Notes: a model not told the origin generated them from the letters alone. A stretch of 64,000 bases of DNA from Methanothrix sp. (GCA_963682135.1 OY821645.1:1440001-1504000); one strand, 5' to 3'; numbered from the stretch's first letter, positions 30,697 through 37,343 are shown. Numbers and translations are program-made.

Positions 30697-32001
30697 CTAG
30701 GGCACCAGCCGTCTTCTATCCCTTGGGAAAAGAACTGCATCGCGAATATTTTCCAGCTTGAGCATGGTCATGACCAGCCGGGAGAGTCCCAATCCCCAGC
30801 CGGCATGCGGCGGCATGCCATAGCGGAAGGCCTTGAGGTAGAACTCAAATCCGTCCGGGTCCAGCCCTTTTTCTTTTATGCGCTCTACCAGCTGGTTGTA
30901 GTCATGAACTCTTTGCGCCCCGCTGGCCAGCTCCATGGTGGGATGCATGAGATCAAATCCCCGGCAAACCTCCGGCTTGTCCTCATAGGGCAAAGTGTAG
31001 TAGGGTTTTATGGAGGAAGGCCAGTCGGTGAGGAAGTAGTGCTCGCCTATGGTCTCGCCCAAGAACCTCTCGGTCTCGGTATCCAGATCATCTCCCCACT
31101 GCATCTTAACGCCTGCCTTCTTTGCAGCCAGATCCAGTGCCTCAGAATAAGTGATTCTTTTGAAGGGAAGCTTCGGAACCTGCAGGTCCAGGCCCAGGAC
31201 CTCCAACTGGTAGCGGCAGTTCTCGGCCACATGCTGATAGCACCCAGCCACCGCCTCTTCCAAGATCTCCATAACGTCCTTGTCATCGACAAAGCTGACC
31301 TCAATATCTATGGAGATGGCCTCATTGAGGTGTCGGCGGGTGTCGTGCTCCTCAGCCCGGAAGATGGGGCCGATCTCAAAGACCCGATCCATACCTGCAC
31401 CCATGAGCATCTGTTTGAAGAGCTGGGGGCTCTGATTGAGGAAAGCCTCCTTCTCAAAGTAGCTGATAGGGAAGAGATCAGTTCCACCCTCTGTAGCCGC
31501 AGCCACAATCTTGGGGGTGAAGACCTCGGTCAATCCTTTTTGAGAGAAGAAGCTTCTCAGATATTGCAGGACCGCGCTCTCGATCTCGAAGGCGGCCAGA
31601 ACGCAGGGCCTTCTAATATCCATGAATCTGGCATCGAGTCGTGTGTCCAGCTCGCACTCCACCTTCTCTGTGGGATCCAGGGGCAAAGGCACCTGTGCAG
31701 CGTTCAACACCTGTATTTCGGTAGGAAGGATCTCGTATCCGCGAGGAGCTTTCGGCTCTGCCTTGACATTTCCTCGTACCAGTACTACGCTCTCTCTGCT
31801 GATGGAGCGGGCACTCTTGAAAGCCTCTTTTCCCAAAAGCTTCTTGACGAGAGTCACCTGTGCCAGCCCTTTTCTGTCCCGCAGTACCAGGAAGGCTATA
31901 CCTCCCAGGTCGCGCATCTCGTGAGCAAAGCCGGTTAAAATAACCTCTTTGCCATCCAACTGCGCGTTAATATCGCCTGAATAATGAGTTCTAAGGATCA
32001 A
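30697..32001 (-). CDS. aspS: Aspartate--tRNA(Asp/Asn) ligase, archaeal type
   Basis: N-terminal OB fold, [38 protein letters not shown]. Confidence 0.97.
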
Positions 32002-32118
32002 GTCGTCTCACGTGAGCAAGAATGAATTCCTGATATAAAAGCAGTCTGGATAAGATAAAGACAAATAAGATGAGAGCCCATCCAATAAAAAGTGACGAGG
32101 TGGGTGGATTTGAACTTG

Positions 32119-32787
32119 ATGAACAGGATACCCACAGGAATTCCAGGTCTGGATAACATGATTGAGGGGGGTCTTCCCAGACCGTCCCTTACCCTTCTAT
32201 CGGGCGACGCTGGGGCAGGCAAGACCACATTTTGCACTCAGTTTCTCTGCAAGGGAGCTGATCTAGGTGAGCACTGCCTGTACCTGCTGCCTTTTGGCGG
32301 ACCATCTGATCTGCAAATCAATTACGCCACCAGTTATGAATTTGTCAAGAGCGCCTATTTTGGCAAGGAGATCTGCTACCTGGAGCTGGAAGAGATGGTC
32401 GAAAAAGCATGCCGATCGAAAGACTTTTTGGACATATTGGAGCGAGAGATGGATACGCTAAAGCCGACTCGAATCGTCATTGAAAACCTCTCCATTCTGG
32501 AAGGTGTTCTCAAAGACGAATACTGGCGTTTTCTCCTTAAATTGTCTCATATGATCAAAGCAAAAGCAGTGGTGACACTGGTGGCAGAGGATGCACAGCC
32601 GGGCATACCTTATCCTGCGAACATAGCCCAGGTTGCAGATGGAATTATCCTGCTGCAAAATGAAGAGATTAATTTCGCACGGAGAAGGTCCATCGAAATC
32701 CTGAAGATGTGCGGCACATCTCATCATTTGGGAAAGCATGCAGTAGATATATCTGTCAAAGGGTTAGTTGTTTATCCGGGTCTGTAA
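32119..32787 (+). CDS. KaiC/RAD55-family ATPase (single domain)
   Basis: RIPTGIPGLDNMIEGGLP, GDAGAGKT, ADGIILL, RRSIEILKM.GT.H. Confidence 0.9.
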   Translation: MNRIPTGIPGLDNMIEGGLPRPSLTLLSGDAGAGKTTFCTQFLCKGADLGEHCLYLLPFGGPSDLQINYATSYEFVKSAYFGKEICYLELEEMVEKACRSKDFLDILEREMDTLKPTRIVIENLSILEGVLKDEYWRFLLKLSHMIKAKAVVTLVAEDAQPGIPYPANIAQVADGIILLQNEEINFARRRSIEILKMCGTSHHLGKHAVDISVKGLVVYPGL

Positions 32788-32788
32788 T

Positions 32789-32998
32789 ATGACAAAATCC
32801 ATGCAGGATCTCCTAGGCCAGAAGGAATTCTGGGTTTTTCTCTTCGTCTTAGGGTGGGTGCTGCTCAACTGGCCATTAATCGAACTGGCTAACGGCTACG
32901 CAATATTGGGCATGCCTGCCATACTGGTTTATGTTGCCTCGATTTGGCTATTCTTCATACTGGCTCTGTACCTTTTCGATCGGGGGAATTATGATTGA
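32789..32998 (+). CDS. Small 2-TM membrane protein (SSS-associated)
   Basis: FWVFLFVLGWVLLNWPLI...ILGMPAILVYVASIW; sits between kaiC-like gene and SSS fusion with coupled stops and starts. Confidence 0.8.
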   Translation: MTKSMQDLLGQKEFWVFLFVLGWVLLNWPLIELANGYAILGMPAILVYVASIWLFFILALYLFDRGNYD

Positions 32999-35900
32999 TC
33001 GGACAGCATGTAGCTCTGGTTGTAATGGTCCTTTACCTGCTGCTGCTCTTTGGCATTGCTCGGTATGCTGATCACCAAAAACACCTGGGAAGAAGCATCG
33101 TGGCCAATCCCTATGTTTATGCATTATCTCTATGTGTATATGTTTCGGCATGGACCTTTTACGGCTCTATCGGAAGAGCGGCATCCACGGGCCTCGAGTT
33201 TCTGCCCATCTACCTGGGCCCCGTCCTGGCCATGACTGCCGGCTGGATCATAATCAAAAAGATGATCCGTGTCTCGAAAGAACACCGTCTGACATCCATC
33301 AGCGATTTTATTAGCTTTCGCTATGGGCGAAGCTACACCATAGGCGCTGTGGTGGCTGTGTTGAGCCTTATCATGGTAACGCCTTATGTGGCACTGCAGC
33401 TCATTGCCATCTCCACATCTCTTGATATATTGAGCGGATCGAACCTCATATTTCTGGGCTTTAATGTGGAAAGCAAGTTGGTAGTGGCCGTTCTCCTGGG
33501 AGCATTTGCGGTGATATTCGGAGCCAGACACCTCGATCCCATGGAGCGCCATGAGGGGCTAATTGCGGTGGTGGCCTTTGAATCTCTGGTGAAAATAGTG
33601 GCCTTTCTTCTTGCAGGACTCTATGTCGCTTACGGCATCTTTTCGGGATACGGAAATATTATGAGCGGGATGATCGACCTGGCAGCAAAAAATCCGGGAT
33701 ACGATACACTCATGGATATAGATCCAACGCTCTGGTTCACCTTGACTTTGTCCTCCTTCTTTGCCATCCTATTCTTGCCCAGACAGTTTCATGTCATGGT
33801 GGTAGAAAACTCCGATGAGCTGCATCTCAAGAAGGCCATGTGGCTCTTTCCTCTCTATCTTTTGTTGATCAATTTATTTGTTCCTGCAATCGCCTGGGGT
33901 GGTGTGCTCCTCAATACACCGGGTCTGAAGGATGCCTTCATAATAACCATACCTTATACCATGGGTCAGGACGCTCTCTCGCTTTTCGTGTTCATAGGCG
34001 GCACTTCTGCCGCCACGGCTATGATCCTGATTGAATCGGTTGCCGTGGGTACCATGCTGCTCAACGATTTGGAGATGCCTTATATTTTGGGCCATATTAA
34101 GAAGGATAGAAATCTGGCCAATACGCTTCTCAATACGAGACGGGTGAATATACTTCTGGTCGTGCTCTTAGGATACCTGTATTCGCGCGCTGTAGCTTAC
34201 CAGACACTGGGAGATATTGGTGTCGTCTCTTTTCTGGCGGCCAGCCAGTTAGCGCCCGCCGCGTTGGGCGGACTGTACTGGAAGACCGGCAACCGAAAAG
34301 GGGCCATGGCGGGCCTGGCGTCAGGCTTCTTGCTTTGGGCCTACACCGCCCTCATTCCCACAGTTGCGAAAGGTAATGCATGGCTGGGTGATTGGGTCAG
34401 AGATGGGCCTCTGGACATGTCCCTCCTCAGGCCTACCAATCTTTTGGGGCTTGATCTGGATATCTGGACAAACTCCGTATTCTGGACCCTTCTCGTCAAC
34501 TGCAGCCTGTATGTTCTCGTATCTTTGGCAAGCAAACCCAGTTCGGATGAAGAGAGCACCGCTGATTGCTTCGTGGATGCTTACCAGCAAGGGAGAACCT
34601 CCCACTTTCTGGATAAGGGAACGATACACCAGGGAACGGTTGATGAGCTGGAGGCAACTCTGGCGCACTATATTGGTGAGACGCCGGCCAGGAGAGAGGT
34701 CGATGCCTACCTTGAACGTCTGGGCACCAGCCGGGAGAAGATTGAGTCAGACCAGCTTCGGCAGTTGTGGGACCAATTTGAGAAGACGCTTACCGGTTCG
34801 GTGGGACCTTCGGCTACCAGGATGATTGTGGAAGATCATGTGACGGTGAAACCGGTTATGGAAGCGGCCAAGGAAACCCTTCCTGCATACGATCTGGCGC
34901 GTGGAAAGATCTATGTCGTGCCTGAGATTGCCTATGCGGTCTTCACCGATCAGATCACTCACGGCGTAGAAGGACTATGCATCACGCATGATCCCCCGGA
35001 GGATGTGAGGCAACGCTGGGGATTTATTGAGACACCCATCATAAAACTCTCCGACGAAAAAGGAAGCGATCGCTACATATCTCCCAGAAATCTGCCCCTC
35101 CTATTTGTGACTATAAAGTCATTCGTTGAGTCCAGCAAGAACAGCATCGTTCTAATAGACAGCATTGAGAAGCTCATCAAAGAAAATGAAGGCAAAATTC
35201 CGCAAAGGGAGATACTCGACTACGTCTACCAAATGGAGCTTTTGGCCCATAAATCGCATTTTATACTGGCGGAAGACCCAGATTTTGTCCATGCGGAAAT
35301 GACCTCAAGCATAAATGAGGTAAATGAGCTGCTTTTCTCGTTAGGTCCCCTTTCCAGCTATCTCTTCCAAGCCTTCTCCGATACCATGCTCTCCAGGCTC
35401 AACGATGATGCAAGAAGAGAGGCAGTTATGCAGGCCAATGAGCAAATAGCCTCAGGGCAATTCTTTGAGACAAGCAATCAAACAAAGCCGCTCTCTGATG
35501 ATTCAGTTAGCGCCTGCGAGCCGGATATGAAAGACGCCCTGCATTCCGGTATGTCTCTTAGTATCCGCCCAGATCTGGTGCTAACAAGACGCAGTTTCTT
35601 TGTGGCCGTGAGAAGGCTGGGTAGGATAATCAAAACATATGATCCTGCCTTCGACATCGTCGCGGCATTGGCAGAGCTCATGAAGAGTTATGGACGAAGT
35701 CCCTATGAGATCGCTCTTATTCCTGGGACCACTTATATTATTGCCGAAGAAAAGCCGCAAAAGAGCCTGGAGTTATTCAGCGAGTTAGTGAGGCACGGCA
35801 TGGATGGGCTGTGCTTGAGCCGCTATAATCCAGCAACCCTTAATGAAAGGTACAATGTGCCTGCAGATACGGTCATATGGTTGACGCAAAAGAGCGAGCC

Positions 35901-36174
35901 AGGATATAGAACTGTGGACCCGACTAACTTCCCCCGGCTCTCCAGTATGATCTCCGATTTTCTGGGAAGGGCCAACTATCCCATTATCTTACTGGAAGGG
36001 ATGGGATATCTCATCACCCAGAGCAACTACGAGACTGTGCTCCGGTTTGTTCAATCTCAGAGAGATGAGATCGCCCTAAAGAACGCTATAATGCTGGTAC
36101 ATATCGATCCACTCTCTCTGGACACAAAGGAGCTGCATCGTTTGGGAAGCGAAATGGAGACTTTTAAGGCATGA
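32995..36174 (+). CDS. SLC5 (SSS)-STAC-2xDUF835 fusion, putative solute sensor
   Basis: CrbS-like SLC5 region (LSLCVYVSAWTFYGSIGRA, FLPIYLGP, LPRQFHV.VVEN), a STAC-like helical segment (ELEATLAHYIG...EKTLTGSVGPSATR), and two DUF835-like repeats (GLCITHDPP..; GLCLSRYNP..IWLT..VDPTN..LLEG..YL). Confidence 0.85.
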   Translation: MIGQHVALVVMVLYLLLLFGIARYADHQKHLGRSIVANPYVYALSLCVYVSAWTFYGSIGRAASTGLEFLPIYLGPVLAMTAGWIIIKKMIRVSKEHRLTSISDFISFRYGRSYTIGAVVAVLSLIMVTPYVALQLIAISTSLDILSGSNLIFLGFNVESKLVVAVLLGAFAVIFGARHLDPMERHEGLIAVVAFESLVKIVAFLLAGLYVAYGIFSGYGNIMSGMIDLAAKNPGYDTLMDIDPTLWFTLTLSSFFAILFLPRQFHVMVVENSDELHLKKAMWLFPLYLLLINLFVPAIAWGGVLLNTPGLKDAFIITIPYTMGQDALSLFVFIGGTSAATAMILIESVAVGTMLLNDLEMPYILGHIKKDRNLANTLLNTRRVNILLVVLLGYLYSRAVAYQTLGDIGVVSFLAASQLAPAALGGLYWKTGNRKGAMAGLASGFLLWAYTALIPTVAKGNAWLGDWVRDGPLDMSLLRPTNLLGLDLDIWTNSVFWTLLVNCSLYVLVSLASKPSSDEESTADCFVDAYQQGRTSHFLDKGTIHQGTVDELEATLAHYIGETPARREVDAYLERLGTSREKIESDQLRQLWDQFEKTLTGSVGPSATRMIVEDHVTVKPVMEAAKETLPAYDLARGKIYVVPEIAYAVFTDQITHGVEGLCITHDPPEDVRQRWGFIETPIIKLSDEKGSDRYISPRNLPLLFVTIKSFVESSKNSIVLIDSIEKLIKENEGKIPQREILDYVYQMELLAHKSHFILAEDPDFVHAEMTSSINEVNELLFSLGPLSSYLFQAFSDTMLSRLNDDARREAVMQANEQIASGQFFETSNQTKPLSDDSVSACEPDMKDALHSGMSLSIRPDLVLTRRSFFVAVRRLGRIIKTYDPAFDIVAALAELMKSYGRSPYEIALIPGTTYIIAEEKPQKSLELFSELVRHGMDGLCLSRYNPATLNERYNVPADTVIWLTQKSEPGYRTVDPTNFPRLSSMISDFLGRANYPIILLEGMGYLITQSNYETVLRFVQSQRDEIALKNAIMLVHIDPLSLDTKELHRLGSEMETFKA

Positions 36175-36218: not shown

Positions 36219-36461
36219 ATGTACGATGCAGGACTTATATTATTATTTGTAGTCATAGTCTTTGGCACATTCTTGATCCTGAGATCCATCAAGAATTTCG
36301 TGCTTAATGCCATAATGGGGTTGGTAATTCTTATTCTGGCAAATGCCGTGGCCGGTCTTGGAATTGGTTATAGCTGGCTGGTGATCTTGATCTGCGGCAT
36401 AGGTGGAGTCCTGGGTGCATTCCTGGTGATATTGCTTCATTTTCTGGGATTTGGGATTTAG
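36219..36461 (+). CDS. BofA-like small membrane protein
   Basis: LNAIMGLVILILAN...ICGIGGVLGA; three TM helices. Confidence 0.75.
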   Translation: MYDAGLILLFVVIVFGTFLILRSIKNFVLNAIMGLVILILANAVAGLGIGYSWLVILICGIGGVLGAFLVILLHFLGFGI

Positions 36462-36715
36462 AGAGAATCCAATTTTTCATTTACTGTTGAATTTATATCA
36501 TTAATATTTTGCAGCAGCTCATATCCGGAAGACGTTGTCTTATATAGCCGTTCTTCTTTGACAAGATAACCGTGCGAAGTCAACCATTCGAGGTACTGTC
36601 CTGCATTTTTGAAATTAAGGTTTACCTGGTAGACTATTTTGGTCTTACTTGATCCTTCTGTTTTGCATATATTGAGAATACCGCCAAGTATCTCTATCTT
36701 GTTTCTGCGCGTCAT
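36458..36715 (-). CDS. Winged-helix DNA-binding protein
   Basis: RRNKIEI..IL, SKTKIVYQVNLNF..YLEWL, YKTT..G. Confidence 0.85.
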   Translation of the reverse strand: MTRRNKIEILGGILNICKTEGSSKTKIVYQVNLNFKNAGQYLEWLTSHGYLVKEERLYKTTSSGYELLQNINDINSTVNEKLDSL

Positions 36716-36887: not shown

Positions 36888-37343
36888 TTAATTCGACACA
36901 CGGGATGAAATGGCTTTATCCAGTTCGTCTGCATCCATTCGTAGAAGTTCATCTCCTTGGCTCTTAAGTCTTGCCAGATCCCTGCGTAAGGGTCCCAAAC
37001 GCAGGACTGCATCCGGTTCCCCTGTCGAGGAGACCATCTGCTGCAACCTCTCCAGCCTCAGCCTCATTGCATCCTGCCCATTTAGCAATTCCGACAGATC
37101 TCGCAGGGCCTTTACAACGTTTTTGCCGCGTGCCGTTAGCTCCAGGTAATTGATCCTTCCTTCTGGTCGCGACTTGATCAAACCCTGCGCTTCCAGCTCA
37201 CGAAAAATGCTACAGGTATGAGGAAAGGTAGAATCGATACGCTTAGCGACCAGCGCCGCATAAGCATGCTCGGTCTCGTCCACAGCAATTAATGCTGAAA
37301 CGGGCTTTTCCCGGAGGAAAAGCCGCTCTAGTGGTTTCTGCAT
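36888..37343 (-). CDS. MarR-like winged-helix protein
   Basis: LFLREKP, AKRIDSTFPH, LEAQGLI..GRI..LTARG. Confidence 0.8.
   Translation of the reverse strand: MQKPLERLFLREKPVSALIAVDETEHAYAALVAKRIDSTFPHTCSIFRELEAQGLIKSRPEGRINYLELTARGKNVVKALRDLSELLNGQDAMRLRLERLQQMVSSTGEPDAVLRLGPLRRDLARLKSQGDELLRMDADELDKAISSRVSN

Follow-up and report, generated by a model that had tools for sequence, protein, structure and literature searches.

How could a transporter-sensor of the bacterial SLC5-STAC kind pass on its signal in an archaeon, where no histidine kinase follows it? This question is raised by a locus of three consecutive genes on the plus strand (32119–36174) of a 64,000-nucleotide stretch of DNA from Methanothrix sp. 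(GCA_963682135.1 OY821645.1:1440001-1504000), which is called the window below and from whose first letter all positions are counted. The genes encode a KaiC-like protein, a 69-amino-acid peptide with two hydrophobic helices, and a 1059-amino-acid protein in which an SLC5 transporter domain and a STAC domain are followed by two DUF835 domains. An original prediction, made from the sequence alone, had described them as a coupled operon in which a CrbS-like sensor is wired to KaiC-family modules. Two systems with separate histories of study meet at this locus, namely the bacterial SLC5-STAC transceptors, for which a cryo-electron microscopy structure is available, and a proposed archaeal KaiC hub; this signalling hub was reportedly proposed by Makarova, Galperin and Koonin in 2017 (see also Galperin et al. 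2018). The Methanotrichaceae are obligately acetoclastic and account for much of the acetate-derived methane in digesters, wetlands and rice soils.

A CbrA-like input module followed by two DUF835 domains

Residues 9–616 of the large protein (gene at 32995–36174) align to PDB chain 10ed_A, a 606-residue 'histidine kinase', with an E-value of 1.5e-84. This chain represents CbrA of Pseudomonas putida, truncated to its SLC5-STAC part (preprint PMC13022988). The SLC5 (LeuT-fold) transporter domain occupies approximately residues 1–520 (32995–34554). The Pfam SSF model found no match in the N-terminal 545 residues even at E<=10; SSF is precomputed for many close homologues of the large protein. The CbrA alignment continues through residues 545–616 (34627–34842), where the STAC loop motif, given as LGPx(x)A (PMC4834066), appears as VGPSA. 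The alignment and the motif together place a predicted four-helix STAC domain directly after the transporter.

The binding site of CbrA is largely retained. K196 of CbrA, which fills the Na2 site and is tied to proton coupling (PMC13022988), has an equivalent lysine in the large protein, and lysine is found at this position in 158 of 160 family rows. Most CbrA pocket residues are also conserved. Two residues of the histidine pocket, A56 and F248, are Thr and Ser here; these are the residues of the family majority and are carried by the CrbS- and RpuS-type rows as well. The pocket residues were rejected as predictors of the ligand, because they hardly vary within the family and cannot tell one ligand from another.

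Two matches to DUF835 (PF05763), of 52.1 and 128.4 bits where the cut-off is 33.1, lie in the C-terminal part of the protein, and no other Pfam family was matched in the large protein. The first domain spans 34891–35394 (Pfam core 34933–35190) and the second, with the stop codon, 35710–36174 (Pfam core 35749–36156). The two match each other at 24–31% identity, which argues that they arose by duplication. Between them lies a linker of approximately 105 residues (35395–35709), which has neither a Pfam nor a PDB match and, at 25–80% identity to its family orthologues, is less conserved than any other part of the protein. Conservation is highest in the second DUF835 domain, with 68–96% identity in all orthologues compared. 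No HisKA, HATPase, PAS, GAF or REC domain was detected in the large protein at E<=0.01, nor was one seen at E<=10 in those of its parts that were scanned separately. The composition first proposed for this protein, an SLC5-STAC module that ends in two DUF835-like domains and has no histidine kinase, was thereby recovered, with both DUF835 matches above the Pfam cut-off.

Inspection of the DUF835 alignment indicated that the Walker A motif GxxxxGK[ST] is absent, being replaced by EEKPQKS in the second domain and shortened in the first, and that the Walker B strand is retained as hhhh[DE]G. The best PDB match of the DUF835 profile was the KaiC-like FlaH/ArlH structure 4yds_A (E 0.0029), and further weak KaiC-type matches of this region were to NCBIfam FlaH (E 0.0016) and Pfam KaiC (E 0.05). 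DUF835 is listed as an inactivated KaiC-like domain (PMC5847659). These matches hint that the DUF835 domains may be KaiC/RecA-like folds lacking a P-loop. In the ESM Atlas only DUF835 clusters were found, all with scores below 0.9.

The input module is nested among bacterial sequences

Relatives of the SLC5-STAC module are numerous, with 3973 found at E<=1e-3 in a representative library. Outputs were typed in a sample of 154 proteins consisting of the window protein, the 150 best representatives of 50%-identity clusters and three named references. Histidine kinases were found in 78 of these and a histidine kinase with a REC domain in a further 38; GGDEF/EAL (5), SpoIIE (3), HD (1) and DUF835 (2) outputs were rare. 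Both DUF835 proteins come from a single source, as they are the window protein and the representative of its own cluster. The remaining representatives among the best 150 are bacterial where they are named.

Phylogenies were computed with IQ-TREE (quick, LG+G4, 86 rows) and FastTree (160 rows). In the IQ-TREE tree the five Methanotrichaceae rows form a clade with support of 100, nested in a starred group of 21 rows whose remaining members are Nitrospirota (8), Thermodesulfobacteriota (5), 'Deltaproteobacteria' bins (2) and a Pseudomonadota bin (1). The three references are a Pseudomonas aeruginosa gene (L033), which we take to be MxtR/CrbS from its length of 1159 amino acids and its gene context, a CrbS-like gene of S. 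meliloti, which is convergent with a response regulator gene, and an RpuS-like gene of S. fredii. All three have PAS_7-histidine kinase-REC outputs, seen as PAS_7-HisKA-HATPase-REC in L033 and L035, and L035 adjoins a response regulator. The IQ-TREE tree places the CrbS/RpuS references in a starred clade of their own, in its opposite half, and FastTree agrees. In an approximately unbiased (AU) test, a tree that joins the archaeal with the CrbS/RpuS rows was not rejected (p 0.208); both have long branches, and the tree had been seen before the group was chosen. The window protein has no PAS_7-HisKA-HATPase-REC output, and no LuxR-type regulator gene was found in the window. By these comparisons the SLC5-STAC module is nested among bacterial sequences, and nothing ties it specifically to CrbS. 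The description 'CrbS-like' therefore holds to the extent that both belong to one SLC5-STAC family; it does not extend to a place within the CrbS/RpuS clade in the best trees.

A two-helix peptide accompanies the sensor gene

The three open reading frames (ORFs) run consecutively on the plus strand from 32092 to 36174 (32092/32119–32787, 32768/32789–32998 and 32995–36174). The stop codon of the KaiC-like gene (TAA, 32785–32787) is followed after one nucleotide by the ATG of the peptide gene at 32789, and the TGA of the peptide gene (32996–32998) overlaps the TTG start of the large gene (32995–32997). Within the block from 32119 to 36174 these junctions leave no space for an internal promoter. 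The genes were thus found where the original prediction had placed them, coupled as it had described and with two hydrophobic segments in the small peptide.

The peptide (32789–32998) belongs to no Pfam or NCBIfam family and has no PDB match. It is encoded directly upstream in all 21 Methanotrichaceae loci that reach the N-terminus of the large gene. SLC5-STAC loci were also collected from named genomes, giving a set of 80, of which 78 are bacterial and two are from Methanotrichaceae. In 74 of them a crude scan detected, directly next to the sensor gene, a short ORF that encodes two or more hydrophobic segments. Among the six that it missed, L037 was positive by tblastn and L064, L081 and L098 by a second criterion; L038 has just 169 nucleotides of upstream sequence, and L105 has no peptide ORF. 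A profile built from 73 of the bacterial upstream peptides matched the 69-amino-acid peptide with an E-value of 9.4e-17, and this was the sole match among 837 ORFs of the window. The peptide family has thus far stood outside Pfam, with no common Pfam family matched by forty bacterial upstream peptides.

A comparable companion is known from CbrA. CbrX is a two-helix peptide of 58 amino acids; its gene and cbrA overlap and are coupled in translation (PMC6591292), and the peptide has been seen bound to TM3/TM8 of CbrA (PMC13022988). A profile of the peptide family (40 members) compared with the CbrX chain 10ed_X gave an alignment over the whole length at E=2 and 11 bits, and the single sequence gave no match. 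Judged by position, topology and family, the 69-amino-acid peptide is a CbrX-type companion, and homology to CbrX itself is unproven. Two Pseudomonas loci, L093 and L112, were considered as CbrA orthologues that might bridge to CbrX and were rejected, as they encode kinases of approximately 925 amino acids with no GAFTGA activator downstream. No upstream peptide ORF was found at the three CrbS/RpuS-type reference loci. The wide occurrence of the peptide family suggests that a CbrX-type subunit may be a general feature of SLC5-STAC sensors. In the bacterial loci from L038 to L115 the two-helix peptides have 57–126 amino acids and the pattern LFNYPLL ... G(I/V)P.LY.Y.F..W..LI. One bacterial peptide weakly matches DUF3311, the small partner of MctP-type symporters.

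The fusion is a core gene of the Methanotrichaceae

Homologues of the large protein numbered 1561, and the best 120 of these are 70–95% identical to it, have the same length and, where named, are from Methanothrix or Methanotrichaceae. The full-length fusion is present, mostly in one copy, in 103 of 105 Methanotrichaceae genomes, including 64/64 of high quality, and in 16/16 genera of the GTDB; the two genomes lacking it are 56% and 71% complete. When the N-terminal 620 residues were compared with 401 sampled genomes of the phylum, the 16 that matched were all Methanotrichaceae and none of the 385 genomes of other families did. The SLC5-STAC-DUF835 fusion belongs to the single-copy core genes of the Methanotrichaceae. 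A second copy of the cluster, comprising the KaiC-like gene and the SLC5-STAC-DUF835 gene and broken by several stop codons, was seen in a genome of the same genus (G103:C27:6888-10956).

The KaiC-like gene is less evenly distributed. With orthologues called at E<=1e-40, it is present in 59 of the 105 family genomes and in 14 of the 16 genera. By a comparison of coordinates, 58 of 60 places have the orthologue on the strand of the large gene and 210–235 nucleotides ahead of it; of the exceptions, one is split by contig ends (G010) and the other is on another contig (G071). At L036 and L037 the order of the three genes is kept despite different flanking genes. Copies in three genomes (G095, G042 and G050) are truncated or interrupted, and 15 of the 16 genomes of one genus have no KaiC-like gene. 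In the loci without it that were checked, the tRNA synthetase gene and the peptide gene are immediate neighbours. The proposed co-conservation of the three genes was thus found in part: where the KaiC-like gene occurs, it is almost always directly upstream, across 14 of 16 genera, but it is missing from 46 of 105 genomes.

The upstream protein is KaiC-like and has lost its catalytic glutamates

The first gene (32119–32787) encodes a single-domain P-loop protein of 222 amino acids, counted from its ATG, that matches PF06745 at 117 bits against a cut-off of 26.6. An alternative GTG start at 32092 is open (231 amino acids); stop codons at query positions 2–6 in several orthologues favour the ATG. 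In comparison with the structures of clock KaiC the Walker A motif is intact (GDAGAGKT), whereas the catalytic FEE is changed to FGG and the Walker B sequence RVVIDS to RIVIEN, with Glu in place of Asp. The columns of KaiC S431 and T432 hold Ala and Gln in this protein, and its scores against the NCBIfam KaiC equivalogs are far under their cut-offs. From these comparisons the upstream protein is classed as KaiC-like and not as a clock KaiC. A search with PADLOC returned just a weak mad8 match for it (E 6e-4) and no sign of a defence system.

The same features hold across the subfamily. The Walker A motif G-x-x-G-x-GKT[TS] is invariant in 121 of 121 members, and the position of the glutamate pair, which is the general base in KaiC according to a preprint on ArlH, holds Gly-Gly or Gly-Trp in every member. 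Ser-Glu together with the Walker B Asp is found in the family members that diverge most, at L036 and L037, and two other genera have Gly-Gly with the Walker B Asp. By this distribution, loss of the glutamate pair is a derived state. The KaiC-like protein of this genome is predicted to bind ATP and probably hydrolyzes it poorly. The name 'KaiC-like ATPase', under which the gene was first described, is accordingly apt as to family and Walker A motif and doubtful as to catalysis, the glutamate pair having been replaced.

DUF835 genes are linked to KaiC-family genes in other archaeal loci

The genome has only one other DUF835 gene (G000:C1:2962286-2965566; L031 787-4066). It lies in a same-strand cluster that encodes a receiver, a PAS-histidine kinase, the Cys-rich DUF835 protein, a PadR-like regulator and a KaiC-family protein with a degenerate Walker A motif (GAEGTLKS). 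This arrangement suggests a two-component system that feeds a DUF835/KaiC pair with a transcription factor. In another family of the class, 7/7 DUF835 loci have a KaiC-family gene just downstream. A wider draw placed a KaiC-family gene within 1.5 kb of the DUF835 gene in 11 of 30 loci, five of the 30 being SLC5 loci in which the sampled stretch does not reach as far as the KaiC-like gene. The 11 positive loci are from nine genomes of the class Methanosarcinia and two of another family, and they are largely from the same genomes as the 7/7. Among the 78 bacterial SLC5-STAC loci no KaiC-like gene was found, except for one weak match. The linkage of DUF835 genes with KaiC-family genes is real but not universal.

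A third KaiC-family paralogue was noted in the genome (G000:C1:2469887-2470621; L032 2388-3122). It encodes 244 amino acids with the Walker A motif GSSGTGKT, keeps a glutamate near the catalytic position and adjoins an ORF of 594 amino acids. This paralogue is another candidate for the partner of the DUF835 domains.

Transcription and neighbouring genes

The KaiC-like gene is separated by a 117-nucleotide spacer from a divergent gene for aspartyl-tRNA synthetase. A TATA-like box, GATATAAAA, lies inside this spacer on the plus strand (32032–32040) and, by sequence alone, is a candidate promoter of the operon. Contigs from runs X2, X3 and X6, which are of unknown kind, fork within the spacer ahead of the KaiC-like gene (31973–32012); the X2 alternative has a better TATA box, CTTATATAAAA, and approximately ten times the depth. 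The forked contigs may represent a co-existing strain with another upstream arrangement.

Only one RNA run contains any of the locus, with a small share of 0.06 of the sampled words. It gave seven short contigs of 90–97% identity and a depth of approximately 3, touching the KaiC-like gene and two parts of the SLC5 region. One contig spans the junction of the KaiC-like and peptide genes (32730–32932), which is a weak hint only, as contigs cannot prove a transcript and the uncovered parts are uninformative. No Rfam family was matched between 29000 and 38500.

An 80-amino-acid membrane ORF on the plus strand (36219–36461) begins 44 nucleotides after the large gene and matches Pfam BofA at 33 bits (cut-off 26.1). 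It is found downstream in 18 of 21 loci of the same genus and at L037, and not at L036; it is kept more often than the KaiC-like gene. It is possibly part of the same transcription unit. Two small winged-helix proteins are encoded on the minus strand, convergent on the locus (36458–36715 and 36888–37343), with an HTH_45 match at 76.5 bits and a weak match to DUF6293_C. They are limited to the genus and absent from L036 and L037, so they give no sign of a functional tie.

Discussion

These results are consistent with a kinase-free transceptor in which a bacterial input has been joined to an archaeal DUF835 output, an interpretation to which we give an even chance of being correct. The peptide-SLC5-STAC input would have been captured from bacteria at the root of the Methanotrichaceae. 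Its proton-coupled SLC5 domain would bind, and probably carry, a small solute, with a carboxylate or an amino acid the likeliest. The conformational state of the transporter may then pass through a STAC domain docked beneath it, as has been proposed for CbrA, where STAC docks under the hash subdomain of SLC5 (PMC13022988). In the bacterial relatives the domain after STAC is a histidine kinase, a PP2C phosphatase or a cyclic di-GMP enzyme. Here the two tandem DUF835 domains would instead act by protein-protein contact, recruiting or releasing KaiC-family P-loop proteins that in turn reach the downstream targets, and the dedicated upstream KaiC-like protein would be one such partner where its gene exists. 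Binding of this kind has a parallel in ArlH, which is KaiC-like and, according to a preprint, binds partners in an ATP-dependent manner with no measurable ATPase activity in standard assays. The broader idea behind the original prediction, a solute-sensing module wired to KaiC-family parts, is supported.

Several findings weigh against this interpretation. The 46 family genomes that lack the KaiC-like gene include 24 of the 64 of high quality, and in the 5/5 of these that were checked no orthologue was found at another place, a paralogue of 27–29% identity being the closest match. The large protein must therefore work without a KaiC-like neighbour in many members of the family. Its second DUF835 domain is equally conserved with and without that neighbour. 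DUF835 and KaiC-family genes were adjacent in just 11 of the 30 loci drawn, and in two families besides the Methanotrichaceae. A comparison of the DUF835 and KaiC-like subfamily profiles by hhalign was not significant, both profiles being shallow (Neff 2–3). The transporter domain of CbrA is dispensable when the kinase is over-produced (PMC6591292, PMC7918813), so a flow of signal from SLC5 to STAC is unproven even there.

The conservation of the pocket and of the Na2-site residues would also suit a protein that is mainly a transporter, in which SLC5 and the peptide import a solute and the STAC-DUF835 tail, with or without the KaiC-like protein, gates this import according to nucleotide or energy state. 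The SLC5 domain of CbrA does transport histidine (PMC13022988, PMC7918813), STAC was proposed by those who defined it to regulate solute transport (PMC4834066), and a single-copy core gene retained throughout a family of narrow substrate range, whose KaiC-like partner can be lost with no decay of the large gene, is what such a transporter might look like. However, among the 154 proteins typed this input module is nearly always fused to a signalling output, the most conserved part of the large protein is the C-terminal DUF835 domain and not the transporter, and acetate uptake in Methanotrichaceae is now ascribed to AceP homologues (PMC10598746). An account centred on transport is the main rival and is considered rather unlikely. 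Progressive erosion of the motifs in the KaiC-like protein, which seems to run from 'SE' with Asp through 'GG' with Asp to 'GG' with Glu, as well as the truncated or interrupted copies in G095, G042 and G050 and the loss from 46 of 105 genomes, could mean that its gene is a passenger in decay, functionally unconnected with the large protein, whose DUF835 domains would then serve in oligomerization or as a membrane scaffold. Such decay is difficult to reconcile with a Walker A motif invariant in 121/121 members and with a gene that is placed upstream across 14 genera and, at the window locus, joined to the peptide gene by a 1-nucleotide junction; the RNA contig that bridges this junction is a weak hint in the same direction. 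We regard a passenger gene as very improbable.

A third alternative is that the protein senses acetate or another short carboxylate as the equivalent of CrbS and controls acetyl-CoA synthetase (ACS) and acetate use. CrbS/MxtR and RpuS are reported to be hybrid kinases regulating the use of acetate or pyruvate, ACS is the enzyme class under CrbS/R control in bacteria, and acetate is activated via ACS in Methanosaeta (PMC7746861). The gene is also confined to an obligately acetoclastic family (0/385 sampled phylum genomes elsewhere), and the large protein shares Thr and Ser with the CrbS/RpuS-type rows at the positions of CbrA A56 and F248. The best trees nevertheless place it outside the CrbS/RpuS clade, though with an AU p of 0.21, and it has neither the PAS_7-histidine kinase-REC output nor a LuxR-type regulator. 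Its pocket, nearly invariant in the whole family, is silent on acetate; no CrbS ligand is named in the available portions of the literature searched; and no acetate-pathway genes are among its neighbours in the window. An equivalent of CrbS is therefore judged improbable, and the kinase-free transceptor of bacterial input and DUF835 output is preferred.

The proposed transceptor resembles several known systems and coincides with none. With CbrA-CbrX of P. putida (SLC5-STAC-PAS-histidine kinase, PDB 10ED) it shares the alignment of approximately 600 SLC5-STAC residues, the Na2-site lysine, most pocket residues and a small two-helix peptide gene that lies upstream and overlaps the sensor gene. 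It differs from CbrA in having two DUF835 domains as output in place of PAS-DHp-CA, Thr/Ser in place of A56/F248 and a KaiC-like partner gene in place of a sigma-54 response regulator, and from CbrX in that the peptides have no significant sequence match (E=2 with the 40-member profile). CrbS/MxtR and RpuS belong to the same SLC5-STAC family, with 35–37% identity by tblastn and the same majority pocket residues, but have the PAS_7-HisKA-HATPase-REC output, no upstream peptide and a separate clade (AU p 0.21). The nearest relatives of the input module are the sensors of Nitrospirota and Desulfobacterota, at 41–46% identity. The family of the 69-amino-acid peptide is common to bacterial SLC5-STAC loci, whereas the outputs of these sensors are histidine kinases in 11 rows and a PP2C phosphatase (GAF-SpoIIE) in five, and no KaiC-like gene is their neighbour.

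On the archaeal side, a sensor module followed by a C-terminal DUF835 domain is typical of the DUF835 ('iKaiC') proteins in the phylum sample (430–1270 amino acids), and a KaiC-family gene is adjacent in several lineages; REC-DUF835 proteins have been listed as response regulators (PMC5847659). The large protein stands apart from these in its bacterial SLC5-STAC input, where others have REC, PAS or an ordinary membrane sensor, and in its tandem DUF835 domains. ArlH/FlaH of the archaellum motor is, like the KaiC-like protein, a single RecA-like domain with a Walker A motif, and it is reported to bind ATP with no measurable ATPase activity; both the KaiC-like and the large protein match it weakly in NCBIfam (42–46 bits against cut-offs of 194–215). 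ArlH, however, keeps Glu/Gln at the catalytic position and autophosphorylates, whereas the KaiC-like protein has Gly-Gly. The literature searched, which did not extend to supplements, Makarova et al. 2017 or Korycinski et al. 2015, contained no description of an SLC5-STAC-DUF835 protein. In it the STAC domain and KaiC are never mentioned together, nothing is reported on the Methanothrix gene, DUF835 is named in a single paper, with fusions of the REC-DUF835 type, and no DUF835 protein is reported as characterized. New here are the fusion as a core gene of the Methanotrichaceae, the bacterial placement of its module, the peptide family, the linkage to the KaiC-like gene and the Gly-Gly motif.

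A defined input, a limited class of ligands and a defined output make kinase-free archaeal solute signalling testable with purified parts, and the genomes with and without the KaiC-like partner offer a natural comparison. The locus matters for the Methanotrichaceae because the sensing and uptake of acetate at low concentration are poorly understood in this family. In its boldest form, which we consider a long shot, the proposal is that the large protein is a family-defining, proton-coupled transceptor for acetate or short monocarboxylates, acquired from anaerobic bacteria at the base of the family and read via the DUF835 domains as pseudo-ATPases and via KaiC-type P-loop switches, not by phosphotransfer. 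If this were true, the locus would regulate high-affinity acetoclastic methanogenesis and provide the first tractable path from input to output in the proposed archaeal KaiC hub.

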